64,000 bases of DNA, taken from an uncultured virus (IMG/VR IMGVR_UViG_3300047160_035018). Lineage: Duplodnaviria > Heunggongvirae > Uroviricota > Caudoviricetes. A model generated the notes under the pieces. That model was not told the origin of the DNA. It worked only from the letters and a program-made list of their open reading frames with translations, and did not search any database. Location of the stretch: the IMG/VR virus record IMGVR_UViG_3300047160_035018. The stretch is one strand, 5' to 3'. This document shows positions 10,295 to 47,559 of the stretch, one piece after another (the first letter of the stretch is position 1; each line of letters opens with the position of its first letter). The translations under genes and the position numbers were made by a program.

Positions 10295-10297
10295 CTT

Positions 10298-10924: not shown

Positions 10925-10958
10925 GCGTGGCGTCCTTGGCGGGGTCCTCGGCAAAGGG

Positions 10959-13971: not shown

Positions 13972-14639
13972 TTCGGGCTCCAGTTCACGAGCGCCACGAG
14001 CCCCAGCGCCGCCAGCGCGAAGCCACCGCCGATCACCCAGGCCATGGCGCCAGGCTTGCCGAAGGGATCGATCGTCTGGACCTTCGTCGTCGACCCCGGC
14101 GGCGTGAAGGTCTTCGGCTTGACGGTCGCGCCTTCGGCCGCGTAGGCCTGGGCCGCATAGCCGTTGGCGCCGAGGAGCGAGGTGATGAGGTCCGAGAGCG
14201 CGGCGACGGGCGGGTTCACGGCCATCCCGTAGACGACGCTGTATGCCTGCGCCGCGGCGTCCCAGGCGTCCGCGATGTCCTGACTCCCGAGCGGCCCCGA
14301 GCAGGTCGTGCTGGGCCCGTTCGAGCAGCCGCCGTTCGTTCCACGCAGGACCGCGACGTGGAAGCCGGCCGCCGCGTAGGTCGCCACGTCGCTCGCACTC
14401 TGGATGTCCTCGAGGTCCGGCGGCGGGCCGAGATCGGGCAGATCACCCGGCTCGTACGTGAAGTTGATCGGGTCACCGAGGCCACCGAGGAGCGATGTGC
14501 CGAGGAGCGACGTGCCGTGGCATCCCGGGCAGGTGCAGTTCACGCACTCGCCGTGGAGGTGGCCGCCTGGCCCGAGGAGCATCGGCCCTACCTTCATTCC
14601 GAGCGGCATCCCGAGCGGGCCGAGGAGCCGAGTCTTCAT
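13968..14639 (-). CDS. Membrane protein with LG-rich N-terminus
   Basis: MKTRLLGPLGMPLG...SLLGTSLLGGLGDP; C-terminal TM. Confidence 0.75.
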   Translation of the reverse strand: MKTRLLGPLGMPLGMKVGPMLLGPGGHLHGECVNCTCPGCHGTSLLGTSLLGGLGDPINFTYEPGDLPDLGPPPDLEDIQSASDVATYAAAGFHVAVLRGTNGGCSNGPSTTCSGPLGSQDIADAWDAAAQAYSVVYGMAVNPPVAALSDLITSLLGANGYAAQAYAAEGATVKPKTFTPPGSTTKVQTIDPFGKPGAMAWVIGGGFALAALGLVALVNWSPK

Positions 14640-16823: not shown

Positions 16824-17047
16824 GTGACGCGAGTGACGAGGAGGACGTCCCCGCTCTCGTGGAGCGGGTCATGGCGGCCGTCGCGGATACCGACCCGGAG
16901 AAGGCCGTGCCGTGTCTCCTCGGCATCGCGGCCGAGATCGTTCTCGACGATGCCCCGGAGGCGCCCTTGGAGGTCTTCCTCCACCTCGCCACGCGGGCCT
17001 TCACGTACATGAAGGCCTCCCGCACAACCGAAGGAGTTACCCATTGA
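16820..17047 (+). CDS. Hypothetical protein
   Basis: GTGA-coupled, acidic, helical. Confidence 0.55.
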   Translation: MSDASDEEDVPALVERVMAAVADTDPEKAVPCLLGIAAEIVLDDAPEAPLEVFLHLATRAFTYMKASRTTEGVTH

Positions 17048-25579: not shown

Positions 25580-26091
25580 TGCGCGACGTCAAGACCAACC
25601 CGCTTGTCCTCTTGGCCTACATGGCCCATCCAGTTGGCCACGGCGCGGTAGCGGTGGCGAACGTCCAGAAGGCCAAGGCGCGCCTCTACTGGCTGATCGA
25701 GAACTTATCCGCCGTCGCATTTGCCGACGAGGCCACGACAGTCACCGTGCTCATCACCTGGGTCGCACCGTGGCTCCCCGAAGCAGAACTTTCCTTCAAC
25801 TTCGGGCGGGAGTCGGCGCCGCACGAGGAGATCATGCTGCGCTGCGAGACAACCGCCGGTCAGTGCGACCTCCTCTTCGCCTTCGGCGACCGGGTGAGCC
25901 CGGGCATGGAGCGCGAGGCAAGGGCGTGCCGCGAAGGAGGTGGGCGCTGTTTCAACATGACCGGAGAGAGAGACGAGATGCTCGGGCATCTGATCGCGCG
26001 CCTGATCAAAGATTACGTCCTGACCCGGCGCGCGCTGGCGGCGGAGGGGCCCATCGTGAGTGTGGCCATCACCGACAAGGACGGGCCGTGA
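25579..26091 (+). CDS. Nucleoside deoxyribosyltransferase-like (DUF4406-like) protein
   Basis: YMAHP, CDLLFAFG..SPGMERE. Confidence 0.6.
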   Translation: MRDVKTNPLVLLAYMAHPVGHGAVAVANVQKAKARLYWLIENLSAVAFADEATTVTVLITWVAPWLPEAELSFNFGRESAPHEEIMLRCETTAGQCDLLFAFGDRVSPGMEREARACREGGGRCFNMTGERDEMLGHLIARLIKDYVLTRRALAAEGPIVSVAITDKDGP

Positions 26092-26621
26092 TCCGCCCCG
26101 TCCTCGTCTACCCACACCCCATGCTGCGCCGGACGTCCGAGCCCGTCGAGTTCGCGGAGCATCACCTACCCGGCCGCCAGCAACTCGCCGAGGACCTCCT
26201 CGACACGCTGGAGGACCAGCACGGCCTCGGCCTCTCGGCTATCCAGATCGGCGTCCCGCTCCGGGTCATCGCGATCGTGAACGGTGCGCACGGGCCCGAG
26301 GTCCTCTGGAACCCGACCATCTGCGGCGGTGGGGCGGGGCCATTCGTACGAGTCAAGGAGGGTTGCCTCTCGTTCCCGGACGTCTTCATCATGGTGCCCC
26401 GGTCTTCCATCGCCTCAGTGACGTATCAAAACGAACATGGCGAGGCACGCTGGCTCGACCTCGGCGGCACGGCCGCCCAGGCCATCCAGCACGAGATCGA
26501 GCACCTGGACGGCCACCTCCTCATCGACCACACGAAGGGCGCCCAGCGCCAACTCGTCGTCCAGCGGCTCAAGCGGTTCATGAGGAAGACGCGGAAGACG
26601 GGAAAGAGGGTTTCACTGTGA
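26088..26621 (+). CDS. def: Peptide deformylase
   Basis: All three motifs: GLGLSAIQIG, EGCLS, QHEIEHLDG. Confidence 0.95.
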   Translation: MIRPVLVYPHPMLRRTSEPVEFAEHHLPGRQQLAEDLLDTLEDQHGLGLSAIQIGVPLRVIAIVNGAHGPEVLWNPTICGGGAGPFVRVKEGCLSFPDVFIMVPRSSIASVTYQNEHGEARWLDLGGTAAQAIQHEIEHLDGHLLIDHTKGAQRQLVVQRLKRFMRKTRKTGKRVSL

Positions 26622-27159: not shown

Positions 27160-28317
27160 ATGGGTTCCGACGCCTACTCCCCCCACAAGATCGTCCGCCA
27201 CCTCGACGTCATCCAGAACATCCGGGCGGGCGTCCCGGCCCGGCCCGTGCACGTTCAGCTAATAATATCAGATACTTGCAACCAAGCCTGCAGATTTTGT
27301 GCGTATCGGAACCCCGACTACTCGAGCTCCAAGCTCTTCTACGAGGTCCGCCCCGGGAAGGGCGGGCTCAGGCGCTCCGAGGCGCACCCGGAGCGCGACT
27401 ACAACCCGCGGCGCATGATCGACTGGGAGAAGATCAGGGAGATCCTCCTCGACTGCAAGGAGATGGGCGTCTCCGGCCTGCAACTGACCGGCGGCGGCGA
27501 GCCCACCGTCCATCCCCAGTTCCTCTACACGGTGGAGCTCGCGCAGAAGCTCGACCTCGCCGTCGCCGTGGTCTCGAACGGGGTCCAGATCGGCAAGAAG
27601 CTCGCCCAGGACGAGCGCTTCCTCGGCCTCTTCGGCCGGGTGTCCTGGTCTCGCATCTCGATCGATGCCGGCGACCACGAGAGCTACAGCCGGGTCCGCC
27701 ATGTGCCGCCCGACCACTTCGACTCGGCCTGGCAGGCCGTGACCAGGCTCCGCGAGGCCTCGGATGCGTCCAGGCTGGCGCACAAGCCCGTGGTCGGGGT
27801 CGGCTACGTCGTGACCCCAGACAACTGGCAGGGCGTTCTGGCGGGCACCCAGCGGGCCCGGGACGCCGGAGCCCACAACATCCGCATCTCGGCCGAGTTC
27901 ACGGTGGACGGGACGCGCCACTTCGATGGGTTCCGGGCCCAGGCGGCCGCCTTGGCCCGTGAGGCCGAGCTCGTGGCCGGGCCCGACTTCCAGGTCTACA
28001 ACCGCTTCTCCGAGAAGCTCGAGGACCTCCGCCAGGGACAGCCGGACTACCAGCGCTGCCACTACCAGGAGGTCACGACCTACATCGGTGGTGACCTCAA
28101 CGTCTACCGGTGCTGCGTGCAGAGCTACAACCCGACCGGCCTCGTCGGCTCGCTCAAGGAGATGCGTTTCCGCGACCTCTGGATGGCCGAGGACCGGGCC
28201 CGCGAGATGGAGCAGTTCGACGCCAGGGGCTGTGAGCGGTGCCAGTTCAACACCATCAACCGCAACCTCGCCTACGCGCTTGGCGCCGAGGGGAAGCAGC
28301 ACGAGGAGTTCCCATGA
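27160..28317 (+). CDS. Radical SAM protein with SPASM/twitch domain
   Basis: CNQACRFC, TGGGEP, RISIDA; C-terminal C..GDLNVYRCC..CERC. Confidence 0.92.
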   Translation: MGSDAYSPHKIVRHLDVIQNIRAGVPARPVHVQLIISDTCNQACRFCAYRNPDYSSSKLFYEVRPGKGGLRRSEAHPERDYNPRRMIDWEKIREILLDCKEMGVSGLQLTGGGEPTVHPQFLYTVELAQKLDLAVAVVSNGVQIGKKLAQDERFLGLFGRVSWSRISIDAGDHESYSRVRHVPPDHFDSAWQAVTRLREASDASRLAHKPVVGVGYVVTPDNWQGVLAGTQRARDAGAHNIRISAEFTVDGTRHFDGFRAQAAALAREAELVAGPDFQVYNRFSEKLEDLRQGQPDYQRCHYQEVTTYIGGDLNVYRCCVQSYNPTGLVGSLKEMRFRDLWMAEDRAREMEQFDARGCERCQFNTINRNLAYALGAEGKQHEEFP

Positions 28318-30213: not shown

Positions 30214-30549
30214 ATGAGCTCACAGGTCGACATCGCGGCGTATCCGGTCCTCATCCTCATGTTCGGGATGAGGGACTGCGACGCCTGCAAGGCCTACCTG
30301 CCGCGCTTTCAGACCATCGCCCGGCGCCATCCCCGCGTGCCCAGCTTCGCCGTCGACTGCGACGCACAGCCCGACGCCTCCGACCGCTTCGGGGTGAGAG
30401 AGACCCCCACGACCTTCTTCCTGTCCTACGGCCAGACGGTCTTCCGCTTCGCCGGTGAGGGCACGACCGCCGACGTCGAGAAGCTCTTCCGGCACGCCGA
30501 GAGCGTCGCCGCCGAGATCGAGCTTCAGGGCGTGGGGTGGAGGCGATGA
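30214..30549 (+). CDS. Thioredoxin-fold protein
   Basis: CDAC, AVDCD, FGVRETPT (cis-Pro loop). Confidence 0.88.
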   Translation: MSSQVDIAAYPVLILMFGMRDCDACKAYLPRFQTIARRHPRVPSFAVDCDAQPDASDRFGVRETPTTFFLSYGQTVFRFAGEGTTADVEKLFRHAESVAAEIELQGVGWRR

Positions 30550-34280: not shown

Positions 34281-34632
34281 GTCCTACCTCGCTCCGCGGA
34301 TCTGAGGCCGCGGCTGGGGGCGCGGCTGGGGCCGGGGCGCCGGCCTCGGTCCGCCGATCTGGCGGATGCAGCAATCCTTGCCCATGCCGAAGAGGCTACC
34401 GCGACGGGACCACGAAGGGAAGAAAGGGGAGCCCACCCCCTTTGCCACCCGCAGATGGCGTGGGCCTTCTCCTTCAATGTCCAGTGGCGGCGGGGTGCCA
34501 CTCCCGCCAGAAAGGCTCTCAAAGTGGATTGCCCGGAGGTCCCGCTCCGGTCTGTTCAGACTACCACGCCGGGCATTTTCCTTCATTCACCAGGGTAGAA
34601 GGAACTGCGGGCCATGCTCGCCCGCAGAGAGG

Positions 34633-35040
34633 TCAGGTCCCGCCGCCGCGGCGCTTGGCTTCGGCCGCCTCGTCGCGCTTCCGGCGGGCCTCGATCGCCG
34701 CCGGGTGCATGCAGGGGCAGGTCGAGCCATCGTGGTAGCGCCCGGCCCCGCGGAGGCGCTTCTCGCCGCCCGTCAGCGTCTCCTCGCAGGGGAGGCCGCA
34801 GGGGCCGTTATGGTCCTCGTAACGGATCCGCTCCCAGGACACGTGGCGGAAGTGCTTCAAGACCGAGTGCTCGAGACGGCTGGCCGAGCTCGCGCCCACC
34901 GCCTCACCGCAGGTCTTGCACTTCCCGCCCACGATTCTGATCCGCGACGCTTCCTCGTGGATGTGGTCCGGGATGATCGTCAGGCGCTGGCGGCGGGCCG
35001 GCTCCTGGCAGTTGTGGCAGCGCTCGATCTTGTCGGCCAT
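34633..35040 (-). CDS. Cys/His-rich hypothetical protein
   Basis: CHNC, CKTC, CPCMH. Confidence 0.65.
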   Translation of the reverse strand: MADKIERCHNCQEPARRQRLTIIPDHIHEEASRIRIVGGKCKTCGEAVGASSASRLEHSVLKHFRHVSWERIRYEDHNGPCGLPCEETLTGGEKRLRGAGRYHDGSTCPCMHPAAIEARRKRDEAAEAKRRGGGT

Positions 35041-35054
35041 GGCTCTATGCTACC

Positions 35055-35873
35055 TCAGTTGCGCCGGGGCTGTGGCGGGTTCCAGTAGCCGGCGCGCGTT
35101 GTCCCGCCTGTTCCGCTCCCGGCACCCACGCTGAGTAGCGCCACCGACGGCTTGCGGGACTGGAGGTAACCGGCATCGGCGAAGGCGTCGGTCGTGCCCG
35201 TACCCGTGTCGGCATCGAGCGCGGCCGAGCTCGCAAGCTCGAGGGCGATGCCGCCTGCGCCCACGGCGCCCGTCCAGCTCGCCGATGGCGTCGTGTCTGC
35301 CGTGTCGTTCCGCCAGAAGGTCGCCGTGTTCACCGCGGCGGCCGCGGCGACCTGCGTGAGCGCCGTCTGCCCAGCCTCGGGCGTGATCGTCGCGGTGCCG
35401 AGGATCGCGACCGCGCAAAACGAGCCGTTCTGCGAGCGATCGTAGGCAGCGAGTGTGACCGCCAGCGACGTCGCTGCATCGGCATGGTTCGTCGGCTGCT
35501 GGATGATCGCGGCCTTGCCGTTCGTGCCGAAGAGGGTCCCGGTGTACGCGACCTCGGAGATGGAGCAGTCGAGTTGGTTCACGCCGGCGAAGTCGGCCGT
35601 CACGTTCGAGGCGTCATCGGCCGTGGCGTACGAGACGAAGACCGTCAGCCGCGCGGTCGGCGCCGCGATGGTGCCGAATGTGACCGTGGCTTTCTGCACC
35701 CAGGTCAGGCCGCGGCCCGAGAGCGTCGGCGTGTCCGGCGTCGCCGCCTTGACGTTCGTAACGACGACGATGATCTCGTCGCCCGCGAGGACCTGCCATG
35801 CGGTCCCCGCGTACGAGCTCGCGGCGGACCCGGAGGCCGTCGTCTGTGTCGCTCTGGCCACCATGAACGCCAT
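35055..35873 (-). CDS. Ala/Thr-rich beta protein (putative spike component)
   Basis: AGDEIIVVV..GLTW pattern similar to the domains of 6956-8902. Confidence 0.75.
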   Translation of the reverse strand: MAFMVARATQTTASGSAASSYAGTAWQVLAGDEIIVVVTNVKAATPDTPTLSGRGLTWVQKATVTFGTIAAPTARLTVFVSYATADDASNVTADFAGVNQLDCSISEVAYTGTLFGTNGKAAIIQQPTNHADAATSLAVTLAAYDRSQNGSFCAVAILGTATITPEAGQTALTQVAAAAAVNTATFWRNDTADTTPSASWTGAVGAGGIALELASSAALDADTGTGTTDAFADAGYLQSRKPSVALLSVGAGSGTGGTTRAGYWNPPQPRRN

Positions 35874-35876
35874 CGG

Positions 35877-36056
35877 TCACTCCGTCGGCATCCGGCCCGG
35901 GCCCGGGTTCCAGGGGATGATGACCACGCTCACCTGGCCGCCGAGGATCAAAATGAAGTCGGTATCCGGGGTCGCGGTACCCACGTCGGAGGACAGGGTG
36001 GAGGTCACGAAGCTCTCGATGATGCCGTCCAGCACATCGCCGTCTACCGTCGCCAT
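35877..36056 (-). CDS. Small acidic protein (59 aa, not in ORF track)
   Basis: MATVDGDVLDGIIESF...IIPWNPGPGRMPTE; fills the operon gap. Confidence 0.6.
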   Translation of the reverse strand: MATVDGDVLDGIIESFVTSTLSSDVGTATPDTDFILILGGQVSVVIIPWNPGPGRMPTE

Positions 36057-36072
36057 GGCATCACCAGTGGCA

Positions 36073-37104
36073 TCACGCGATTACCGGCACGGAGCCTTCC
36101 CAGGGCCACACGAAGTCGTCGAACTGAGCGAACTGGCGCGACGTGTCGTTCGGGTAGGTGTCGCCCGTGTTGACCCCGGCGCTGCCGACCCAGAGATCGA
36201 AGAGCTGGCCGTGCCGGCCGATGGACCCGGCGTTGAGACCCGTCACGCCGAGCGGGCCGAGCGGGAATGCCCCGGTGAGATCGCTGGCGACCGGGACCGC
36301 GATGCCGACCGGTTGGTAAACCGAAGTCACGAACCCTTCCTCGGTGACGCCGAACTGGACGGGTTGCCCATCCTCCAGCGAGCCCGTCGGACCGCGGGCC
36401 CAGATCGGATCGTAGTTCGAGCCCGGATACCAGTTCACGATGCTACCGGCCAGCTTGGCCGGCGACCCGCCGCCCCCGACCCCGATGCCACCGATGAGGG
36501 TCGGCGGCGAGAAGGAGGGGAACTTCAGCGTGTCGTAGTTCATGAACTGGGCGAGTACGAAGCCCGAGTCCAAGCTCATGTGCCGCGCGCACTGCCCATC
36601 GGTCGACTGCCAGATGTTGACCACGGATTGCGACGACACCGAGATCCCATCGACCCAGTAGATCACCCCGCCGGCGATGTCGTTCACGATGGCGTCAGAC
36701 GGCGTGGCCGGGGGCGTGGTCGTGGTGCCACCCGTGAAGCCGACGCTCGGCGAGATCACGAAGCCGTTTCCCGCGAAGTTCCAGAGTTGACCCTTGCCTT
36801 GGCCACAGGTCACGAGCAACTGTGCGCCCGTCGTTCGGTTCTTGAGCACGATCCAGGACCGTGGCGAGCCGCTGCCCGCGAACTTGATGTCCGAGTCCGA
36901 GGACCAGCGGTCAACACCATCGCCGGCCGTGCCGGCGACCGTACCGTTGCACGAGTACCAGACGTCCCAGCCACCGCTGGCGAACCCGACGAAGGCGTTC
37001 TTGACCGTCCGGTAGGCACGCTCCGCCTGGGTACCCGAGCCGACGGACAAGGGGACCACGTTGTTCGCGGATACCTGCCAGATTTTGTCCAGCGGGATGC
37101 TCAT
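36073..37104 (-). CDS. Putative spike/vertex protein, paralog 3
   Basis: YSCNGTVAGTAGDGVDRW, GFTGGTTT, QSTDG, GRHG, TYPNDTSRQ. Confidence 0.8.
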   Translation of the reverse strand: MSIPLDKIWQVSANNVVPLSVGSGTQAERAYRTVKNAFVGFASGGWDVWYSCNGTVAGTAGDGVDRWSSDSDIKFAGSGSPRSWIVLKNRTTGAQLLVTCGQGKGQLWNFAGNGFVISPSVGFTGGTTTTPPATPSDAIVNDIAGGVIYWVDGISVSSQSVVNIWQSTDGQCARHMSLDSGFVLAQFMNYDTLKFPSFSPPTLIGGIGVGGGGSPAKLAGSIVNWYPGSNYDPIWARGPTGSLEDGQPVQFGVTEEGFVTSVYQPVGIAVPVASDLTGAFPLGPLGVTGLNAGSIGRHGQLFDLWVGSAGVNTGDTYPNDTSRQFAQFDDFVWPWEGSVPVIA

Positions 37105-38132
37105 CCGAGCCTCGCGATCACGCCGTTCCAGGGCTGGAGCGTGTTGCCCCAGACCATCCACTGCCTCGAGTCGTCCTCGGGGTAGGTATTGCCCGTCGTG
37201 TTTGTCTTCGACACGAACCAGAAGTCAAAGACCCGGCCGTGACGACCTCTGACCGGGGCCTGGGAGCAGGCGATCCCGGCCGGGAACAGCGGCCAGGTCT
37301 GATCGAACTGGTTCGGCGACGTGAGGAGGTTTCCGAGCACGTCTTCGTCAGCGCCGCCCGGGTGATAGCTTCCCTCCGCCGTCATGACGACCTGGACGTT
37401 GGAGCCGTTGATCCGCGACCAGAGCGGTAGCGTGGTCACGAGGTCCGTGTTGAGTTGGCCGTAAACCGGAGCCTCGTTGGCATTTCCCTTGGCCATGGCG
37501 ATGAACGGAAGCGTCCATGTGCTGACCGGGGCCAGCGGCACATCAAACATCCAGTAGCCGCTCATGAGGTTATTCCAGGCGATGCCCACTCTCGTGCACT
37601 GCCCGTCGGTCGACTGGAGCGTGTGCACAACCGCGGTGAAGTCTGCCGACGCCGTGGCCCCGTTCCAGAGGCCGGCACTGTTCGTCGACGACCCGTTCGT
37701 GATGACGAGTTCGTCGGTTGCCGTCGGGCGCGCGGTGGTCGTGCCACCCGTGAAGCCGGCCGAGACCGAGACCACCACCGTCAGCCCCTGTTCGATGGCC
37801 GCCGAGAACCCGGACTCCTTGCAGTCGATGCAGATCTGGAAGTTCGAGTGGAGGCCGGCCTGCTTGAGGACGGTCCAACTGTGGGCGGCGCTCGCGCTGG
37901 TCCAGACCATGTTCGCGTCACTCAGCCAGCGGTCGACGCCATCACCGGCCGTGCCGGCGGTCACGGAGTCACACGAGTAGAGGCAGGTCCAAGCGTTCTG
38001 GGCGAACCCGAGGAGAAGGTTCTTCAGCGTGCGGAGGAGACGCTTCTCGGTGGCCGACGCCGAACCCTGGGCGTACACGAACTGGTTCACCTGGTGCTGC
38101 CAGAGCTTCAGGTTCACCGGGGACGCCATCAC
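37101..38132 (-). CDS. Putative spike/vertex protein, paralog 2
   Basis: YSCDSVTAGTAGDGVDRW, GFTGGTTT, QSTDG, GRHG, TYPEDDSRQ. Confidence 0.8.
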   Translation of the reverse strand: MMASPVNLKLWQHQVNQFVYAQGSASATEKRLLRTLKNLLLGFAQNAWTCLYSCDSVTAGTAGDGVDRWLSDANMVWTSASAAHSWTVLKQAGLHSNFQICIDCKESGFSAAIEQGLTVVVSVSAGFTGGTTTARPTATDELVITNGSSTNSAGLWNGATASADFTAVVHTLQSTDGQCTRVGIAWNNLMSGYWMFDVPLAPVSTWTLPFIAMAKGNANEAPVYGQLNTDLVTTLPLWSRINGSNVQVVMTAEGSYHPGGADEDVLGNLLTSPNQFDQTWPLFPAGIACSQAPVRGRHGRVFDFWFVSKTNTTGNTYPEDDSRQWMVWGNTLQPWNGVIARLG

Positions 38133-39151
38133 GCCACCTGCGCAATCACCCCGTTCCAGGGGTGGAGGAAGTTCCCGTGCACGACGAACTGCCGGCTCGC
38201 GTCGGCCGGGTACGTGTCGCCCGGACCGTTCGTCGTCGAGACGGCCCAGGTGTCGATGGCGAGCCCGTGCCGGCCCCGGTTCGCCGTGGTCTCGGACTCG
38301 TAGCCCATCGGGGTGACCGGGTAGTTTCCGTCGAGATCGTTGGCGACGGTCTGCCTCTGGCCGATGGTCTGGCCGCCACAGCCCTCGGTGGTCCAGACGA
38401 GGTTCATGGCCGACGCTCCGAGGGCGTGGTGCTTGCGCTGGCTGTCCGTCGTCAGCGCGACGAGGTTGGCATAGGTCGGGAAGTCAGCGGTGTTGTTGCC
38501 GGTGGACTTCACGAGCCCGACCACCGATGGCGCCGGCCAGCCCGACACGGGGCTCGAGGCGAGCTCCAGACACCACAGCGCGGGCGCGGCGCTGTTCGCG
38601 TACCAGAGGACGCGGGTCACGGCACCGTCGGTCGACTGCATGACGTTCATGACGTCGACGACGCCGTTCGCCGGGAGTGGGTTCCAGCCCTTGTAGGTGC
38701 CGCTCGCCACTGTCACGTCGGTGCCGAGCGCCAAGGTCACCTGGTCCGCCGCCGTCGGCGTCGCCGTCGTCGTGCCGCCGGTGAAGCCGGCGCTGGGGCT
38801 CATGCGGACCGTCAGGCCATCGCCGTTCCCCGACGTCACGCAGGCAATGCAGATCTGGAAGCCGGCGCCGACCCCGGTCTGCGCGAGGACGACCCAGGAG
38901 TGCGCCGTGCCCTCGGCCGTCGCCCAGACGACATCCGAGTCAGCGGCCCAGTGGTCGACGCCATCGCCCGCCGAGCCCGCCACCGTGCCATTGCAGGAGT
39001 AGCCCATGGCCCAGGGCGCCTGGCCGAAGCCGATGAGCTTGTTCTTGAGGGCGCGGAGCCGGGTCTTCTGCTGGTTGACGGGCGTGGCACCGGTCAGGAC
39101 GGCGTTGTTCACGTTGAACTGGTAGGTCTTCTGTGGCGTCGGGATCGCCAT
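38129..39151 (-). CDS. Putative spike/vertex protein, paralog 1
   Basis: YSCNGTVAGSAGDGVDHW, GFTGGTTT, QSTDG, GRHG, TYPADASRQ. Confidence 0.8.
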   Translation of the reverse strand: MAIPTPQKTYQFNVNNAVLTGATPVNQQKTRLRALKNKLIGFGQAPWAMGYSCNGTVAGSAGDGVDHWAADSDVVWATAEGTAHSWVVLAQTGVGAGFQICIACVTSGNGDGLTVRMSPSAGFTGGTTTATPTAADQVTLALGTDVTVASGTYKGWNPLPANGVVDVMNVMQSTDGAVTRVLWYANSAAPALWCLELASSPVSGWPAPSVVGLVKSTGNNTADFPTYANLVALTTDSQRKHHALGASAMNLVWTTEGCGGQTIGQRQTVANDLDGNYPVTPMGYESETTANRGRHGLAIDTWAVSTTNGPGDTYPADASRQFVVHGNFLHPWNGVIAQVA

Positions 39152-39157
39152 GGTCCC

Positions 39158-39544
39158 CTACGAGTCGTCGAAGCTCGTCGCGGTGAGCTCGGTGACGATC
39201 ACCGAGGTCTGGACCGCGGCCCAGACGTAGAGGCTGTTCTCACCCGGCCGCTCGACGTCGATGCGCCATGGCACGTTGGCCGGGATCCGGTGGTAGCCCG
39301 GCCCCGACCCGGCCGATGTCGGATCGACGGGGAGGGTCACGACGACGCCCGCTGACTTCAAGGAGTGAACGGCCTGGCAGGCGTAGATGTCACCCGAGGC
39401 CGTGACGACGAAGCTCTTGGACTTGCCGAGGGAGCCGTCGGCGTTTAGCGCCACCAGCACGAACTCGGTCCATGTCGTGGCGGCGAGGATCTGGAGGTGC
39501 GCCGAGCCGATCTTGGACGTGCCGTACTCGCCAAAGAGGCTCAT
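39158..39544 (-). CDS. Small beta-sandwich protein (penton-like candidate)
   Basis: 128 aa, all-beta pattern, lies between capsid candidates and spikes. Confidence 0.6.
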   Translation of the reverse strand: MSLFGEYGTSKIGSAHLQILAATTWTEFVLVALNADGSLGKSKSFVVTASGDIYACQAVHSLKSAGVVVTLPVDPTSAGSGPGYHRIPANVPWRIDVERPGENSLYVWAAVQTSVIVTELTATSFDDS

Positions 39545-40005
39545 CCCTTCCTCCAGCCGAGCGGCGGCCCGGCGAGACCCGTTCTGCCGCTCGTACCGTC
39601 CGGCCCGCCGGCGAGGTAGGCCTCGAGCTCGATGTAGACGACGCTGAAGCTGGCCCAGACGAGCTGGCCCGGCCCGCCCCACGGGACCTTCGTGTCGACA
39701 CTGGCCATGCCGTAGAGCGTCTGGTCGCAGTTGAGCTCCCAGTGGAAGGGCTGGCCCACGCCGACGACCTCGACCTCGGAGAGGTAGTTTCCGATGGCCG
39801 GGTTCCCCTGGAACGCGGAGGGCACGATGCCCAGCATGGCGTAGGCGCCGGCCGCACCGAGGATCCGGCCGCGAATGACGGCGCGCGCCCCCTTGGGCGT
39901 CACGGCGAGCGGGATGGGCCCGCCGGTCTTGTCGTACGAGACGAGCTGGTTTCTGGCCTGGAGGACCAGCGTCTTGCCGTACGACTGGAGGTCGAGGACG
40001 TCCAC
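39541..40005 (-). CDS. Beta-sandwich putative minor capsid protein
   Basis: GTG start, 154 aa, all-beta pattern. Confidence 0.6.
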   Translation of the reverse strand: MDVLDLQSYGKTLVLQARNQLVSYDKTGGPIPLAVTPKGARAVIRGRILGAAGAYAMLGIVPSAFQGNPAIGNYLSEVEVVGVGQPFHWELNCDQTLYGMASVDTKVPWGGPGQLVWASFSVVYIELEAYLAGGPDGTSGRTGLAGPPLGWRKG

Positions 40006-40015
40006 GGGCCCTCGC

Positions 40016-40510
40016 TCAGGTGATGAGGAGCGAGCCCTGTAAGCCGAGCTCGAAGCGGACGTTGGCCGCATTCGCGAGCGGCACGAGGTTCGTGACCTCG
40101 ACGACGAAGCCGTTCTGCCGCTCGAGGTAGAGCGGGTAGTCGAAGGACCAGATCTTGTTTTCCTTCTCCACGAGCTCGGACAGGCGCGTCGAGACGAGGG
40201 TCATGTCGCGCGAGTCCGAGAGGAGCTTGATCTTGACCTTCACGAGGTGGAGGATGTCGCCGATGTTCGGGTCGGGGATGGGATTGAGACTCCCGTCGAG
40301 GCACGCCACCGCCGGGATCATGCGGAGGACCTCGAACGGCAGATCCAGCGAATGGATGAACGACCCGTCGGGGAAGACGGTGGGCGCCGCCGCGGCCGCG
40401 AGCGTCATGTCCGACGCGACGATGTAGGGCTTCCGGGCCTTGATGTCGAAGGTCTTCGCCAGCGGCGAAAAGTAGCTCTTCGGCAGTTGGAGAAGCGTGA
40501 TGGCGCTCAT
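40016..40510 (-). CDS. Putative second (small) jelly-roll capsid protein
   Basis: 164 aa; LPFEVLRM..VKVKIK..YPLYL..FVVEVTN..FELGLQG strand pattern; AGGAGG RBS. Confidence 0.6.
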   Translation of the reverse strand: MSAITLLQLPKSYFSPLAKTFDIKARKPYIVASDMTLAAAAAPTVFPDGSFIHSLDLPFEVLRMIPAVACLDGSLNPIPDPNIGDILHLVKVKIKLLSDSRDMTLVSTRLSELVEKENKIWSFDYPLYLERQNGFVVEVTNLVPLANAANVRFELGLQGSLLIT

Positions 40511-40545
40511 CCCGTGGTGTCCTCCTTGTCCGAGGACACCACGGG
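40511..40545 (-). promoter_or_regulatory. Perfect 14-bp hairpin overlapping the RBS of 40016-40510
   Basis: CCCGTGGTGTCCTC (40511-24) / GAGGACACCACGGG (40532-45). Confidence 0.75.
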
Positions 40546-40569
40546 GCGAGGATTCCGTCGAAGAACGGG

Positions 40570-41277
40570 CTAGTTCACCTGGCGCTTGATGAGGCCGACC
40601 TTCATCCACCGGTGGTCGACGAAGTTGAGGTTCTTCGTCGTGTCCGTGGGCGCGTCCAGCGCGGGCTGGCTGATCGACAGGGCGATCTGCGGCGAGAGGT
40701 TGAGGACATAGCCCAGACCCTCGCGCTCCCAGATCGGGAGCACCATCGCCACGCGCTCACGCACGGACGGCGGGCCGAGCGACACGGACTCGCGCGCGGT
40801 CTGCGTGCCCTGCCAGTAGATCCCGCCACCGCCGGGGTAGTCGCGCGGCAGGCCCTGGGAATACGACTTCGCGTTGTACTTGTACTCCGCGAAGAGGCGC
40901 CGATCGAGGTTGAAGAGCGTCTGCTGGGACAGCGGGTCCGAGTAGTCGGTGAGGAGCGGGTTCGTGTTCGAGCCCGAGGTGCGGGTCGCCCGCATCCCCT
41001 GGTTCGCGATGGAGTAGACGTAGAACTCCATCGACTGCGGCAGGCCGTTGTCGCCCTGGCGCGGGATGTTGGTGTCCACCTTGGTCATGTTGCGGTTGCC
41101 GCCCGGCACGGGCTGCGAGCCCGCCGCCGAGAAGACGCTGATGTCCGCCGTGTCACCGTCCTGCCACTCGCAGGTGCCCCAGTGCCACGAATCGATCCAG
41201 TCGACCAACTGGAGGACGCGCCCGTCCTCGGTCTGAATGGTGGTGCTGCCCGGTGCGACGCCAACGTAACCCGCCAT
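40570..41277 (-). CDS. Putative major capsid protein (single jelly-roll type)
   Basis: 235 aa; strong GAGGAGG RBS; TKVDTNI..G..GLP..EFYVYSI and LPIW..GYVLNL strand pattern; heads the structural cluster; fold is inferred. Confidence 0.62.
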   Translation of the reverse strand: MAGYVGVAPGSTTIQTEDGRVLQLVDWIDSWHWGTCEWQDGDTADISVFSAAGSQPVPGGNRNMTKVDTNIPRQGDNGLPQSMEFYVYSIANQGMRATRTSGSNTNPLLTDYSDPLSQQTLFNLDRRLFAEYKYNAKSYSQGLPRDYPGGGGIYWQGTQTARESVSLGPPSVRERVAMVLPIWEREGLGYVLNLSPQIALSISQPALDAPTDTTKNLNFVDHRWMKVGLIKRQVN

Positions 41278-41319
41278 GGTGTGTCCTCCTCGTTCGAGCC
41301 CGCGCCGTTTTCCTTCATC

Positions 41320-41360
41320 AAGAAAGACCGCCCGGCCCCGGCGCACGTTCCCGGGCGGTC
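41320..41360 (-). terminator. Terminator-like hairpin upstream of the capsid gene
   Basis: GACCGCCCGG (41326-35) / CCGGGCGGTC (41351-60), followed by TTTCTT on the minus strand. Confidence 0.55.
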
Positions 41361-41375
41361 ATCACAGAACCGGGA

Positions 41376-41903
41376 CTAGCCCGGGACCGAGGTATGGCCG
41401 TAGCGGGCCGCGAGCGGCGAGACCGGGGGGCCGCCCATGAGCTGCAGGCTCCGCCGCGAGTCGGCGAGGCCGTTCATGCCCATCTGGCCGTTCATCGGCT
41501 GGGCCTGGATCATGCCGAGCCCGTTCATGCCGGCCGAGATCCGGGGGATCTGCTGGAACTGGACCCCCGAGTAGTGGCCGGTCGTGCCCGCGGACATGTA
41601 CGCCTCGATGGTGCGGAGGCCGTTTCCGAGGAGCCCCGACGCGATCGCGACCCAGCCCGCGTGCCGCGTGCCCTTGAAGGCGGCCATGACGCCGCCGGCG
41701 GCCACGGCGACGCCGAGGCCGAGGAGCTCCGAGTTCTTGACCGACATCGAGCCGAAGGACCGGCCGCCGATGGCCGCCAGCGTGCCGGCGCCGACGCCGA
41801 CCGCGGCGCCCCAGAGCGCGCCGAGCCCCTGCGGGTCGCCGTACTCGTCCAGACCGAAGATGTCCACGTCGTCGTAGCCGCGGCCGAGATCGTTTTCGCT
41901 CAT
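41376..41903 (-). CDS. Gly-rich multi-TM membrane protein (putative major virion membrane protein)
   Basis: GYDDVDIFG..QGLGA leader; three hydrophobic segments; MNGLG/MNGQMG/MNGLA tail. Confidence 0.75.
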   Translation of the reverse strand: MSENDLGRGYDDVDIFGLDEYGDPQGLGALWGAAVGVGAGTLAAIGGRSFGSMSVKNSELLGLGVAVAAGGVMAAFKGTRHAGWVAIASGLLGNGLRTIEAYMSAGTTGHYSGVQFQQIPRISAGMNGLGMIQAQPMNGQMGMNGLADSRRSLQLMGGPPVSPLAARYGHTSVPG

Positions 41904-41929
41904 CTCTCTCTCCTCTCGTAGAGCGGCTC

Positions 41930-42109
41930 TCAGCCGCACCGAACGCTGTTCTTCTGGAACTTCCAGCGGCCGCGCGAGCCCTTGCAGAGCTCGATCGTGC
42001 AGCCACGCTTGCCGCCGTGCTTGACCCGCTTGCACGACTCGCCCTCGCCCATGCCGCGCGACTTCTTCTTGCGCCGGCGCGGGCCCTCGATGGTGTAGAC
42101 GACGGCCAT
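41930..42109 (-). CDS. Small basic Cys protein (59 aa, not in ORF track)
   Basis: MAVVYTIEGPRRRKKKSRGMGEGESCKRVKHGGKRGCTIELCKGSRGRWKFQKNSVRCG. Confidence 0.7.
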   Translation of the reverse strand: MAVVYTIEGPRRRKKKSRGMGEGESCKRVKHGGKRGCTIELCKGSRGRWKFQKNSVRCG

Positions 42110-42112
42110 GGC

Positions 42113-42382
42113 CTACTTCCTCCCGAAGAACCGGGCGATGAAGGTCGGCTGCTGGGTCGTCGGGCCGACCGGGACGTCGGTGGCCGGCGTCTGGCCCGGC
42201 ACTGGCTCGAGGCTCGGGACGTTGGCCGCCTGCGGTCCGTACTGGCCCGCGACCGTCGACGGGTCGCGCGTGAAGGCCCGCGCGATGGCCTCGACCTCGG
42301 CGTGGATGTCCACCGACTCCGCCGGCGGACGACGCATCCCGGTGTAGTAGATCTGGTCCGGCCTCAAGTAGTAGCGGCTCAT
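42113..42382 (-). CDS. Pro-rich hypothetical protein
   Basis: MSRYYLRPDQIYY; first gene of the structural operon. Confidence 0.6.
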   Translation of the reverse strand: MSRYYLRPDQIYYTGMRRPPAESVDIHAEVEAIARAFTRDPSTVAGQYGPQAANVPSLEPVPGQTPATDVPVGPTTQQPTFIARFFGRK

Positions 42383-42646
42383 GGCCCGAGTGGGCCACGG
42401 GCCGAACGCCTCGTCCAAGAGGCCGGTCCGTGGGTCCCTCTGGGTCCACTACGGTTCCGTGCTGAGGAGAAAAAGGTGGTCTACGCTCGGGTCGTGAAGC
42501 GGAAGAAGAGGCCCGCGCGCGGCCCAGAGCCACGGGCGGAGACGGGGACGGGAGCGAGGCCAGAGAGAGCGGAAAGAGCAGAAAGGGCGCCGCTCATTCG
42601 GGCCAGCCCCGGGGCGATCACGCTCGACGGTCCAGCGTCACCGCTC

Positions 42647-42802
42647 ATGACCGTGACCGACCTCGCCGGCTACTTGAACGTGTCGACGAAGACGATCAAG
42701 CGACTCGTCGAGACGGGGAGCGTGCCCTCGATTCGCATCGGCGACACGCACCGCTTCGACATCCACGCCGTTCGGCGCAAGATCGACGGCGGCGGAAGCT
42801 AG
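42647..42802 (+). CDS. Excisionase-like (HTH_17) DNA-binding protein
   Basis: MTVTDLAGYLNVSTKTIKRLVETGSVPSIRIG..RFD; may start upstream (GTG 42494). Confidence 0.85.
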   Translation: MTVTDLAGYLNVSTKTIKRLVETGSVPSIRIGDTHRFDIHAVRRKIDGGGS

Positions 42803-44241: not shown

Positions 44242-44925
44242 ATGAACACGGCAGGCGCGATCGCCCTGGCTCTCGGTGGCGGCCTCGTGGTCGGGGGCGC
44301 CGCCATCCTCCTCGCCCGCCGGCAGGCGACGCTCTCGGGCGCGCGCGCCGAAGGAAAATCGCAGAAGATGGGCGCCACGAAGGGCCGCCACGGCGCCATC
44401 CTCCGGGGCTACACCGGCAAGCTCCCCATCAAAGAGCGGGTCTCCCTTCTCCAGGACCTCGTGGCGAAGAGCGTGAAGGACCCCGACATGCGCGGCCTGG
44501 CGCTCGGGATCACCTCCGACTGCGAGGCCCGGGATGGCCTGTGCGAGATCCGCTCGATCGGCGCGTACACGAAGCGGCAGATCCGGTACACCGGCGACAT
44601 CGCCCCCCACAAGCTCGGGGCCAAGGGCCCGGTCGAGTCCGTGGACCTCTACCAGAGCGCGCGCCGGACGTCCGAGTACGGGGGGGGTGATTGTGATGAC
44701 CATGCCGTGTTCAACGCGAGCATGCTCATCCTGAACGGCATCCCGGCGAAGTTCCGGGTGACGTCGCCCTACCGCTGGGGCAAGGACAACTTCACCCACA
44801 TCTACACGATGGCAGGCTTGCCCAAGGGCGACCCGCAGCGCTGGATCGCGGTCGATACGACCCTCCCCGACTACTCGCTCGGCAAGGAGTACCCCTTCGC
44901 CAAGAACTACGACGCGGTGGCCTGA
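44242..44925 (+). CDS. Membrane-anchored transglutaminase-like cysteine protease
   Basis: IRY..D, GDCDDHA (Cys), GIPAKF, THIY (His), WIAVDTT (Asp); N-terminal TM. Confidence 0.85.
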   Translation: MNTAGAIALALGGGLVVGGAAILLARRQATLSGARAEGKSQKMGATKGRHGAILRGYTGKLPIKERVSLLQDLVAKSVKDPDMRGLALGITSDCEARDGLCEIRSIGAYTKRQIRYTGDIAPHKLGAKGPVESVDLYQSARRTSEYGGGDCDDHAVFNASMLILNGIPAKFRVTSPYRWGKDNFTHIYTMAGLPKGDPQRWIAVDTTLPDYSLGKEYPFAKNYDAVA

Positions 44926-44927
44926 CC

Positions 44928-45218
44928 ATGAACCTACTCGACTTCTCGCCCGACTTCTCGCCCGAGCTCTCGACGGCACGTGCCGACGTGACCCTCGCCG
45001 GCCCCGAGCTCGGCCAGATCCTCGTCTGGTCACCCTGGTACACCTTCTGGGCCATCGCCGGCCCCATCAGCGCCGGGCTCTGTGCCTACCACGGCTACAA
45101 GCGCACGAACGGCTCGGCCGGCTGGACCGCGGGCTGGGCGCTCTTCGGCGCCGTCCTCCCCATCGTCGCACCGGCGGTGGCGCTGGCCCAGGGTTTCGGG
45201 CAGCCCGAGAAGGGTTAG
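44928..45218 (+). CDS. Small membrane protein
   Basis: AYHGYKRT..GW..GWALFG; two hydrophobic helices. Confidence 0.75.
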   Translation: MNLLDFSPDFSPELSTARADVTLAGPELGQILVWSPWYTFWAIAGPISAGLCAYHGYKRTNGSAGWTAGWALFGAVLPIVAPAVALAQGFGQPEKG

Positions 45219-45567: not shown

Positions 45568-47559
45568 TCAGTTCGAGTGGGGCAGATCGTCGTCGCCGCC
45601 GTCCTCGTCGGGGTCGTCGGGGTCCTCGGTCGGCGGCGCGGCCGCGGGCTGCTGCCCTGGCAGGGGCGGACCGCCGCGCTGCTTGGCCTCGGCGAGGAGG
45701 GCGCCCAGGGTCCGCACGAACTCCTTCGGCGCGTCGGGGAGGAGGACGTCGAGGAACATCCCCAGTTGGTCCGACTCGAAGAGGAGCAGCGCATCGACCT
45801 TCCAGCCCTTCTCGGCGATGATCGAGCGCGCCTGGAAGATCCACTGCACCGCGTGCTCGGGCGTGACCTTGCCGGCGTTGACGCCGAGACGGAGACGGTT
45901 CACCTGCTCCAGCGCCGGACCGAAGAGCTTCATCTCCTGCTCCGCCATCTGCGCCTGGACCGCCGTCATCGTGCGGACGGGCTCCTGGGCCGTCTGGACC
46001 ACGGATGGGACCACGGCCAAGGGCACCGCGGGACCGGCGGGCGGCACCTGGACATGCGGCTGGCCCGGCTGCGCCGGCGCCGGGGCGAGCCGCGCGCCGC
46101 CGCCGACCATCGCCGCGGTCGCGTGGGCCCGCGCCTCGGCCTCGCGGGCGCGTGACTCCCCGATGGAGGTGTCACGCTTCATCTGGATGAAGCCCTGCGC
46201 GACGTCGGTCACGCGCTGGACGGCCGTCCCGAGGAGCTCCATGCCAGGTCCCGACGAGCTCTTGTCCATGCCGGCGATCATCTCGCTCGCCATCTTGGCC
46301 ATCGAGAAGACCGACTGGTACGCCTCGGACACGCCCTTCAGGAGCGAGTGCGCGCCGTTCTGGGCGTTCATCTTCTCCTGCATGTCCACGACGTCGCGCA
46401 TGGTGAGAGCGTTCCGATCGCGCTCCTTCGAGGCCTCGGTCGTCGCACGTACCATCTCGCGCGACATCTCCGCGTTCTGGCGCGAGAACTCGATGACCGT
46501 CGTCATCGTCGGATCGGGCCCTTGCGGTCGGGCAGTCAGCGTGAGGAGGAGTTGCTCCTGGCGCGCCTGGTTCTCGCGGGCCGCCTGCTCCGCGCGCTGC
46601 TGGGCCTCCCGACTGTTCTGGTCCATGCGCTCCATCATCCGCATGAACATCTCCATCTGCCGGTCCGACGAGGCCTTCGCGGCGTCGGCGTCGCGGGTCT
46701 GGCGGAGGTCCCGCACCGCGTCGGCCAGGGCGACGAGGGCCCGTGAGGTCTCCTCGTCGCGCGGCGGCGCCGCGGGTCGGTCGGCGATCTTGCGAAGCTC
46801 CTTGAGCTCGTCCCGGAGCGCGCCGAGCTCGCGCTCCCTGGCCGATTGGTTTTCCTTCTGGAGGTTCGTCTCGCGGAGCGCCTGGTTCTCCTTCTCGAGC
46901 TGGCGGAGCCGGAGGTCGAGATCCGGGCTGGCCGTGGAGGACGGCGCCGCGGCGGCGGCGGGGCGCTCGTAGATCATGACCCCCGACGGCTGCGCCGGGG
47001 CGGCGGCGGGGTACGAGTAGCCGGGCGCCTGGACCACGGTCCCAGGGAGGACCGCCTGCGCGATGGCGCCGCGGGGCAGGCCGGCCGGAACGTAGCTCGA
47101 CCACTCGATCGGAGGACCTCCGCCCGCGGCGGCCGCCATGACGACCGGCGCCACCTGCTGGACGGGCTGCTGCTGGGGAAGCTGGATCACCTGCGCCTGC
47201 GGCGCGGTCTGCGGGGCGCGCTGCGCGGCCTCGACGTGCTCGGGTGGGATGAGGTCAGGAAACTGGGTCGTGTCGAACCAGTGCTCGTACTCGATGATTC
47301 CACCCTGCTCATCCGTCACGGTGATGGAGTAGTTGCCGCCGCCGGCCTTGCGGAGGATCGTCTTCGGCAGTTCCGTGCGGACATCGTTGTGATCGTAGCC
47401 CTCGCCGGCGGCCCAGTTCGCGTCGAGCTTGGCCGGCGGCATCGGGATCGGAGTCCCTCTCCCGCCGAAGTACCTCTTGACCACGGAGACCCGGAGCGGT
47501 GGCTGGAGCTGGAGGAGTTTCTTCTCATCGAGGACCTTCGGCGGCGTCACCTTCGACAT
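45568..47559 (-). CDS. Large coiled-coil/low-complexity protein
   Basis: Globular N-terminus, P/Q/A linker, long E/R/M heptads, acidic tail; start chosen at MSKVTPPK. Confidence 0.8.
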   Translation of the reverse strand: MSKVTPPKVLDEKKLLQLQPPLRVSVVKRYFGGRGTPIPMPPAKLDANWAAGEGYDHNDVRTELPKTILRKAGGGNYSITVTDEQGGIIEYEHWFDTTQFPDLIPPEHVEAAQRAPQTAPQAQVIQLPQQQPVQQVAPVVMAAAAGGGPPIEWSSYVPAGLPRGAIAQAVLPGTVVQAPGYSYPAAAPAQPSGVMIYERPAAAAAPSSTASPDLDLRLRQLEKENQALRETNLQKENQSARERELGALRDELKELRKIADRPAAPPRDEETSRALVALADAVRDLRQTRDADAAKASSDRQMEMFMRMMERMDQNSREAQQRAEQAARENQARQEQLLLTLTARPQGPDPTMTTVIEFSRQNAEMSREMVRATTEASKERDRNALTMRDVVDMQEKMNAQNGAHSLLKGVSEAYQSVFSMAKMASEMIAGMDKSSSGPGMELLGTAVQRVTDVAQGFIQMKRDTSIGESRAREAEARAHATAAMVGGGARLAPAPAQPGQPHVQVPPAGPAVPLAVVPSVVQTAQEPVRTMTAVQAQMAEQEMKLFGPALEQVNRLRLGVNAGKVTPEHAVQWIFQARSIIAEKGWKVDALLLFESDQLGMFLDVLLPDAPKEFVRTLGALLAEAKQRGGPPLPGQQPAAAPPTEDPDDPDEDGGDDDLPHSN

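Follow-up and report, generated by a model that had tools for sequence, protein, structure and literature searches.

The IMG/VR record IMGVR_UViG_3300047160_035018 carries a minus-strand operon that may define a new lineage of large viruses without an HK97-type capsid. We tentatively favour the reading that these viruses build a tailless, probably membrane-containing virion from jelly-roll proteins. The window analysed here is 64,000 nt of a 79,787-bp contig, about 15.8 kb of which lie outside it, and all results for the window refer to these 64 kb. The window has a G+C content of 68% and holds most of the genome of a temperate virus, and the lineage to which it belongs is environmentally widespread and apparently undescribed so far. 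We describe the gene structure and conservation of the operon, the folds of a 235-amino-acid (aa) and a 340-aa protein encoded in it, and the absence of detectable hallmark genes of tailed phages. These point to a capsid role of the 235-aa protein, a membrane, a tailless morphology and a particular mode of packaging, which are discussed below as proposals.

Genes were called from third-position G+C (GC3) with a simple script of our own, and transmembrane (TM) segments were likewise counted with our own script, from crude hydropathy. The operon consists of 13 co-directional minus-strand genes running from 42418 down to 34633 with intergenic gaps of -4 to 98 nt, and its products have, in order, 101, 59, 175, 235, 164, 154, 128, 340, 343, 343, 52, 272 and 135 aa (Table 1). 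An earlier note on this DNA had listed a co-directional operon in which the 235-aa gene has a strong ribosome-binding site. The GC3 calls return exactly the same minus-strand genes, and strong Shine-Dalgarno sequences, GAGGAGGA and AAGGAGGA, were found upstream of the 235- and 164-aa genes, which also have the longest upstream gaps in the operon. Pfam was searched with 94 window proteins and PHROGs with 71. Twelve of the 13 operon proteins have no Pfam family, the 135-aa protein having a sub-threshold zinc-ribbon match, and none of the 13 matches PHROGs. The very basic 59-aa peptide is a candidate DNA-condensing or core protein by its composition, and the 175-aa protein with its two hydrophobic segments is a candidate major membrane protein.

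Homologues of the 235-aa protein were found at 16 IMG/VR loci, at 4 loci in species genomes and at 78 metagenome loci, the last of which overlap the IMG/VR records in part (same contigs). Relatives were pooled into 20 related sources, and gene sharing was determined by jackhmmer with all window proteins. The 235-aa protein and the 175-aa TM protein occur in all 20 sources, the 59-aa peptide in 19 (only 6 with stricter settings), a helix-turn-helix (HTH) regulator and a transglutaminase-like protein in 18 each, the 164-aa protein in 17, and thioredoxin and a TM protein related to that encoded at 10298-10924 in 15 each. The core of 59-, 175-, 235- and 164-aa genes is strictly syntenic in 17-20 of the 20 sources, most clearly at loci L106 (on a 90,651-bp contig, with a 235-aa protein 51% identical to that of the window and full synteny of the core) and L083, and in every case the 175-aa homologue lies immediately upstream of the 235-aa gene. 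The 235-aa protein is the product of the most conserved gene of the lineage, with 42-69% identity where most other genes are unrecognisable. The 101-aa gene has homologues at the corresponding position in L083, L105 and L106, with a weak one in genome G005. Downstream of the 164- and 154-aa genes, the region is variable. It contains three genes of the 340-aa family and the 272-aa gene in the window, genes for 226-, 179- and 404-aa proteins in L106, a 726-aa protein in L083, and 107- and 329-aa proteins in G005. In a prophage, several proteins are encoded there, one of them a 1351-aa Gly/Thr-rich repeat fibre. Such variability is what would be expected of host-recognition genes, and the 272-aa gene, judged from its position, is probably part of this variable attachment region. 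Replication genes also differ. The earlier note had suggested that the operon was grafted onto its replication genes, and this module is really swapped between the window (RecT, ParB, DnaC-like) and the related genomes G001-G005 (PolA-UDG, SNF2 helicase, PD-(D/E)XK nuclease, Sak4).

Contigs and genomes of the lineage are mostly 77-91 kb long. Four of them (G001, G002, G003 and G005; 77-86 kb) are classed in IMG/VR as having direct terminal repeats, which we measured as 127, 127, 90 and 127 bp, respectively, and repeats of this kind are typical of circular assemblies. A prophage of about 63 kb is integrated in the closed chromosome of a Gemmatimonadota metagenome-assembled genome (MAG), CP070815.1 (G006), between host genes for a carboxypeptidase-regulatory-domain protein and an M19 dipeptidase, and at least one host of the lineage belongs to the Gemmatimonadota. 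Contigs of other relatives were binned with MAGs of Actinomycetes, Polyangiales and Alphaproteobacteria; for free viral contigs, binning is weak host evidence. Two further traces of the lineage are present in CP070815.1 besides the prophage, a distant paralogue of the 235-aa family (E 2.9e-6) and, elsewhere, a gene of the 663-aa family that is broken by one TAA (1188878-1189330 and 2259929-2261887). Both could be left over from further elements of this lineage.

The 235-aa protein has 27 relatives among 5.8 billion clustered proteins, none of them named, on contigs of up to 106 kb; automatic labels on the related Atlas clusters are Uroviricota, and the contigs are present in IMG/VR. The AlphaFold2 model of this protein, made from the alignment of its relatives, is all-beta, with a predicted local distance difference test (pLDDT) score of 68.5 and a predicted template modelling (pTM) score of 0.67. 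Foldseek of the model against PDB gave nothing below E 1e-3, the list being mostly jelly-roll virus coats, and against BFVD it gave only weak, mixed matches. In a second comparison, Foldseek's top 995 PDB chains were rescored. SPV1 scored 8.2, followed by SH1 (6.9), a 7-7-1 fibre (6.8), the P23-77 VP16-VP17 complex (6.7), HHIV-2 (6.7), VP17 (6.6), PRD1 P3 (5.7) and VP16 (5.2). Thus the protein is predicted to be a jelly roll, as the earlier note had supposed, and P23-77 VP17 and the SH1 and HHIV-2 coats are among its top PDB neighbours together with SPV1; the best structural match of the model is SPV1, not a sphaerolipovirus. The 164-aa protein, which had also been called a beta protein, is a beta-sandwich in the ESM Atlas's own low-confidence model (pTM 0.58), and its neighbours are viral hypothetical proteins and jelly-roll-type beta-sandwiches. 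The same kind of search was uninformative for the 154-aa protein (scores 0.83). By hhalign, the 235- and 164-aa families are not detectably related, and no relation was found between the 164-aa family and the 154-aa protein or between the 235-aa family and the 128-aa protein. Sequence and profile searches of PDB yielded nothing for the profiles of the 235-aa family (A1), A2 and A5, nor for the 663- and 581-aa proteins, and tblastn against 50,697 phage records gave no match for the 235-, 340-, 272- and 648-aa proteins.

By analogy, SPV1 would be the closest model for the way the lineage works, and the P23-77/SH1 group a looser one. The lineage fits neither, because there is no sequence similarity and no FtsK/HerA ATPase was found, and because hosts and genome size differ. 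The SPV1 virion combines a single-jelly-roll shell with a lipid layer and a VP1-DNA core, and no ATPase is among the annotated genes of this virus (PMC8459092). SPV1 (Portogloboviridae; PDB 6oj0) is a 20-kb virus of an archaeal hyperthermophile, whereas the lineage described here is bacterial, 77-91 kb in size and temperate, with integrase and endolysin. It has no sequence similarity to SPV1, and its membrane and nucleoprotein core are deduced from genes alone. The conserved 59-aa peptide with its 18 Lys and Arg residues may be a counterpart of the small DNA-binding protein in a nucleoprotein core of the SPV1 kind, and no ATPase was found.

The earlier note had seen no packaging ATPase in the window, and Walker A, Pfam and PHROG scans agree. 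The only canonical Walker A motif in the window, besides three chance-looking matches, is that of the DnaC-like loader. Pfam and PHROGs revealed no FtsK/HerA, A32 or other packaging ATPase in the window, G001 or G005, and there is none among the lineage-wide genes. The P-loop proteins of the relatives are helicases, Sak4, a MoxR-like AAA protein and a 534-aa protein. The 534-aa P-loop-like protein of G001-G005 was considered as a terminase or packaging ATPase and rejected; it has only faint AAA_23/nSTAND matches (E 0.06-0.1), its gene has helicase, nuclease and Sak4 genes around it, and searches of the window, of the prophage region examined and of a 39.8-kb relative did not reveal the protein. 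The abundance of small TM proteins remarked on in the earlier note was roughly borne out, since 21 of 102 window genes encode a TM segment, compared with 13 of 126 genes in high-GC tailed-phage control loci. Nine of the window proteins have a single C-terminal anchor; there are eight such proteins in G005 and seven in the prophage, versus one in the controls.

These results bear on whether the lineage is an enlarged but true member of the P23-77/SH1 group (Helvetiavirae), as the earlier note had proposed. Its 235- and 164-aa proteins would then be two vertical single-jelly-roll major capsid proteins (MCPs), forming pseudo-hexamers over an internal membrane, and the FtsK/HerA ATPase would lie outside the window or have diverged. 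SH1, HHIV-2, HCIV-1 and P23-77 coat proteins are indeed among the top structure matches, the adjacent 235- and 164-aa beta proteins come after a membrane protein, and their sizes presumably resemble those of the SH1 coat proteins VP4 and VP7. An internal membrane as in Helvetiavirae is at most suggested indirectly, by the conserved two-TM protein beside the 235-aa gene and by the excess of C-terminal anchors. However, neither the window nor G001 nor G005 has a candidate FtsK/HerA, A32 or other ATPase, no PDB chain (the P23-77 VP16/VP17, SH1, HHIV-2 and HCIV-1 coats included) is similar in sequence or profile, SPV1 is the best structural match, and the two families are not detectably related to each other. 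Genomes of Sphaerolipoviridae (17-31 kb) are also smaller than those of the lineage. Membership is distinctly improbable in our view, and an unusually large P23-77/SH1 relative is not demonstrable, because no FtsK/HerA ATPase was found and sequence similarity is absent. A paper on such viruses states that sphaerolipoviruses share the FtsK/HerA ATPase with other Varidnaviria, that the single-jelly-roll group is confined to haloarchaea and Thermus, and that its antiquity has been questioned on the basis of this narrow distribution (PMC8328091).

Pfam families elsewhere in the window are a tyrosine integrase, C5 and N6/N4 methylases, a GT2 glycosyltransferase, a peptide deformylase, a radical-SAM/SPASM enzyme, thioredoxin, a sigma-70 region-4 protein, DUF5131, a DnaC-like loader, RecT and a ParB-like protein. 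These genes mark the window as a temperate, phage-type mobile element in whose sequence no head, packaging or tail gene can be recognised. The claim that it has no terminase, portal or HK97 gene stood for the 64 kb by Pfam and PHROGs and, at the level of hidden Markov models (HMMs), could be extended to complete relatives and the prophage. In the window, neither large terminase (TerL) nor portal, HK97 MCP, tail tube, sheath or tape measure was matched, and only 5 of the 71 proteins searched in PHROGs had any match, none of them in the structural category. No structural or packaging hallmark family was found in complete G001 (134 open reading frames (ORFs) of >=70 aa, by Pfam) or in complete G005 (119 called genes by PHROGs, 83 by Pfam). 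Four G001 ORFs that cross the boundaries between the segments scanned are an integrase, an SNF2 helicase (recognised via homologues in G002, G003 and G005) and two small proteins. Of the two "head and packaging" labels in G005, one, "portal", falls on a NUDIX domain and the other on an endolysin. The prophage and the 39.8-kb closest relative have no hallmark family either, and the families sought without a match in all sets were terminase, portal, HK97-type capsid, protease, scaffold, tube, sheath and tape measure. A six-frame PF03237 search of 5 records for the large terminase gave 0 matches at HMM level. As a positive control, the same PHROG scan detected TerL, portal, major head, sheath or baseplate at E 1e-19 to 1e-112 in 5 of 6 unrelated loci of 39-69% G+C (strongly in L052, L053, L058, L065 and L071; L061 has a major-head match and a weak portal match), with TerL matches at E 1e-19 to 1e-106. 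The controls scored strongly, so the scan does pick up such genes at this G+C content. A tail-fibre domain is present in one prophage protein (phrog_3484, E 1e-8). At HMM level, the testable defining features of tailed phages were not detected in the lineage, whose proteins might still include a divergent HK97 fold.

It is nonetheless conceivable that the virus belongs to the tailed phages (Caudoviricetes) and that its head, packaging and tail-tube genes have diverged beyond the reach of Pfam and PHROGs or, for the contig of the window, lie in the unread 15.8 kb. In that case, the 59/175/235/164 block would be an adsorption, decoration or membrane-interaction module, and the 340-aa proteins, which resemble baseplate proteins gp47/gp48 of phage JBD30 (see below), would be seated on a genuine baseplate. 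The lineage resembles Caudoviricetes of soil bacteria in its genome size, temperate lifestyle, integrase, methylases and replication genes, and the relatives do so also in endolysin and RIIA/RIIB. We regard this possibility as unlikely but as a serious contender. TerL, portal, MCP, tail tube and tape measure are undetected in the window and in complete relatives, four circular genomes and a prophage lack TerL, portal and MCP while the same scans succeed in the controls, and the 340-aa family is missing from 16 IMG/VR relatives and 77 of 78 metagenome loci. Moreover, lineage-wide genes encode at most 235 aa, apart from one for a 663-aa coiled-coil protein, so neither a portal nor a large terminase is among them. 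No gene resembling a tape measure was found either; the 1351-aa prophage protein was examined for this role and rejected as a Gly/Thr/Ala-rich repeat fibre.

The absence of tail genes, also claimed in the earlier note, holds by Pfam and PHROGs but not at fold level, because the three 340-aa genes match JBD30 baseplate fibre proteins. The 340-aa model is confident (pLDDT 88) and shares a fold with gp47/gp48 (PDB 8rk3) over the whole chain. The matched chains, of 317 and 305 residues, are presumably JBD30_047 and JBD30_048, judging by length. In JBD30, gp47 and gp48 are described as having similar folds, with three heterodimers per lateral fibre, and as binding the type IV pilus (PMC11445458). 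The 340-aa proteins are only 11-14% identical to them and have no PDB match at HMM level. The window also differs from JBD30 in having three copies rather than two, with no tape-measure gene before and no Dit/hub genes after them, and Pfam and PHROGs identify no baseplate gene flanking the 340-aa genes. The family comprises 282 proteins at E <=1e-3 and is present at 41 IMG/VR loci. At six annotated loci, the family has tail-sheath, baseplate-hub and wedge genes as neighbours or is found close to TerL, portal and major-head genes, and this tail/baseplate cluster setting holds in other phages (L052, L053, L058, L065 and L071). Judged from the model, the three genes are probably a tailed-phage attachment module. 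Nine ORFs of 323-337 aa, a size that fits the 340-aa fibre family, are arrayed in tandem at L053:10001-20253, on a 71.8-kb IMG/VR contig with 39% G+C. The array starts at the 340-aa-family match 10001-10987, and baseplate-wedge and tail-spike genes and an ORF resembling a transposase lie upstream of it. If all nine ORFs belong to the family, membership having been checked for the first ORF alone, this array is an unusually large receptor-binding expansion.

How does this module relate to the operon core? None of the 41 IMG/VR loci of the 340-aa family has a 235/164/175-aa homologue within 10 kb, and the 340-aa family is lacking at all 16 IMG/VR loci that have a 235-aa homologue. Both families occur together at one of 78 metagenome loci, L149, where two tandem copies lie 6 kb downstream on the same strand. 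A third co-occurrence is implied by an 8,167-bp contig, the longest listed both for a 63%-identical relative of the 235-aa protein and for two relatives of the 340-aa protein. The family is missing from 16 of 16 IMG/VR relatives and 77 of 78 metagenome loci, and the 340-aa paralogues are therefore an accessory acquisition outside the lineage core. By hhalign, no relation was found between the 340-aa family and the 329-343-aa proteins that occupy the same position in G002-G005.

In the tailless jelly-roll reading, the minus-strand operon would define the lineage and supply the core of morphogenesis for a non-HK97 virion. The basic 59-aa peptide would condense DNA or form a core, and a lipid layer would contain the 175-aa two-TM protein and the many proteins with a C-terminal anchor. 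The main shell subunit could be the highly expressed 235-aa jelly-roll protein, which is encoded by the most conserved gene and has a strong ribosome-binding site, and the 164-aa beta-sandwich could be another subunit, of the shell or of the vertices. Attachment proteins mounted at the vertices would come from the variable downstream genes, in the window gp47/gp48-type fibres from tailed phages, whose genes would most simply have been gained by recombination and whose products were then mounted on the particle. The 663-aa coiled-coil protein might, as a speculation from its architecture, be a scaffold or size determinant. There is no conserved packaging ATPase, and encapsidation may therefore use condensation and wrapping of the SPV1 type, not pumping as in PRD1 and P23-77. 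A bolder proposal is a new high-rank group of bacterial double-stranded DNA viruses, with circular genomes of 77-91 kb condensed by a basic peptide, a single-jelly-roll icosahedral shell over a membrane and no packaging ATPase, which is widespread in soils, sediments and mats, infects hosts such as Gemmatimonadota and can mount tailed-phage fibres. We consider this doubtful, if still a real possibility.

Thioredoxin and the Cys-rich anchored proteins may form a virus-encoded disulfide-formation system and would yield disulfide-stabilised membrane or surface proteins. The same proteins enter into another explanation, namely that the particle is non-icosahedral (pleomorphic or enveloped) or that there is no capsid at all, as in a plasmid-like or transfer element. 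The jelly roll would then be a surface, adhesion or envelope protein that works with the anchored Cys-rich proteins and thioredoxin. This is improbable. The relatives encode an endolysin (GH25 plus peptidoglycan-binding), an M23 peptidase, RIIA/RIIB, an integrase and genes of nucleotide metabolism, all of kinds that are characteristic of lytic or temperate viruses. Pfam scans of the window, G001 and G005 revealed no conjugation ATPase, relaxase or FtsK-like translocase, and the small beta proteins, with their strong conservation and high expression, look like a coat module. The RIIA and RIIB homologues of G005 are clear (L039:2970-6286; E 6e-90 and 8e-59); RIIA/RIIB are usually linked to T4-like tailed phages. 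Cys-rich, C-terminally membrane-anchored proteins are encoded in the window at 12668-13654 and 14636-16063, the former a 328-aa protein with 28 Cys and weak CBM_14/DUF4215 matches.

Several points weigh against a tailless jelly-roll virion. The 340-aa genes, as modelled, point to a tail or at least to a mounting adaptor, and genes of the tail-fibre type require some anchoring structure. The searches turned up neither a packaging ATPase nor a penton protein, and no function related to lipids. The unread part of the contig has room for a head module, and the lack of an HMM match does not equal the lack of an HK97 fold, the large proteins having been compared as sequences. Fold scores of the putative 235-aa coat protein are middling, and the fold of the 164-aa protein comes from a low-confidence Atlas model.

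To our knowledge, the known tailless membrane-containing bacterial viruses (tectiviruses, corticoviruses and Thermus sphaerolipoviruses) are all small, roughly <=20 kb, and we know of no tailless bacterial virus with a genome larger than about a quarter to a fifth of 77-91 kb. A keyword search of the open-access literature found no description of a large single-jelly-roll bacterial virus, so an earlier description is possible. If the proposal is true, jelly-roll membrane viruses are neither small nor rare in bacteria, and a widespread 80-90 kb lineage would alter the picture of tailless membrane viruses as small and narrowly distributed. It would widen the range of virion sizes, provide a testable bacterial counterpart to the archaeal SPV1, from which alone an ATPase-less architecture with a condensed genome is so far known, and indicate that attachment modules cross virus realms. 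The tailed-phage fibre genes in a few members are a concrete case of exchange of a host-recognition module. Even with another kind of virion, circular viral genomes of 77-86 kb and a prophage without detectable terminase, portal and HK97 capsid mark a blind spot of virus classification based on hallmark genes.

Table 1. Features of the minus-strand operon and of selected genes around it (positions in the window)
Feature	Position	Strand	Basis
101-aa Pro-rich protein, first gene of the operon	42113..42418	-	Gene call; no Pfam/PHROG match
59-aa very basic peptide	41930..42109	-	Composition: 18 K+R, 4 Cys
175-aa Gly-rich protein, two hydrophobic segments	41376..41903	-	Hydropathy
235-aa jelly-roll protein, candidate MCP	40570..41277	-	Predicted fold; conservation
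164-aa beta-sandwich protein, candidate second capsid or penton protein	40016..40510	-	ESM Atlas model; strong ribosome-binding site
154-aa protein	39541..40005	-	Gene call; homologues only in the closest relatives L083, L105, L106
128-aa protein	39158..39544	-	Gene call; no homologue in relatives
Three tandem paralogues (340/343/343 aa), JBD30 gp47/gp48 baseplate-fibre fold, probable host-attachment module	36073..39151	-	
340-aa gene	38129..39151	-	
343-aa gene	37101..38132	-	
343-aa gene	36073..37104	-	
52-aa ORF	35877..36035	-	Gene call; no Pfam/PHROG match
272-aa Ala/Thr-rich protein	35055..35873	-	No Pfam, PHROG or phage tblastn match
135-aa Cys/His-rich basic protein, last gene of the operon	34633..35040	-	Weak zf-dskA_traR match below cut-off (Pfam)
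Terminator-like hairpin at operon end	34605..34627	-	Hairpin scan
Thioredoxin	30214..30549	+	Pfam E 4.5e-9; kept in 15/20 related sources
HTH_17 (excisionase-like) regulator, divergent from the operon	42647..42802	+	Pfam E 3.4e-7; core gene, 18/20 related sources
Transglutaminase-like cysteine-protease-fold protein (212 aa) and 96-aa TM protein	44287..45218	+	Pfam Transglut_core E 2.7e-6 (212-aa protein)
663-aa protein	45568..47559	-	jackhmmer E ~1e-223; alignment with G001-G005

The hairpin at the end of the operon is weak evidence alone, because 5 such sites occur in 10 kb where 3.6 are expected. Beyond the divergent regulator, the 96-aa TM protein is present in 10 of the 20 related sources and the adjacent transglutaminase-like protein in 18, and both are conserved core genes. 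The 663-aa protein has an N-terminal domain, a P/Q-rich linker, a long coiled-coil-like region rich in E, R, Q and A, a C-terminal domain and an acidic tail. It is common to G001-G005 by jackhmmer and was detected also in L106 and in the genomes behind L083-L085, and it has no match in Pfam, PHROGs or PDB.

No tRNA gene or Rfam family was found in the window. Two ORFs for C5 cytosine methylases, 1444-2178 (244 aa) and 4583-5341 (252 aa), lie on either side of the integrase (3269-4084). Their matches to the Pfam profile span one and the same stretch (positions 59-165 of 324), and therefore they look truncated or duplicated. The 648-aa protein (6956-8902) contains a domain of about 225 aa twice and a C-terminal region with a repeated PSPHLEDEGVVIVYAAPSDAWV motif; a relationship to the 272-aa protein, which was a visual impression, was dropped (BLASTP E 0.17). 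The peptide deformylase is encoded at 26088-26621, the radical-SAM/SPASM enzyme at 27160-28317 and a two-domain GT2 glycosyltransferase at 17044-18501, and the latter two enzymes have 53-54% identity to their counterparts in the 39.8-kb relative. The contig of the closest relative (G007:C8) has a 530-aa ORF at L095:1872-3464 whose TNB domain is Cas12f1-like (TnpB-type) and which lies beside an integrase at the contig end.

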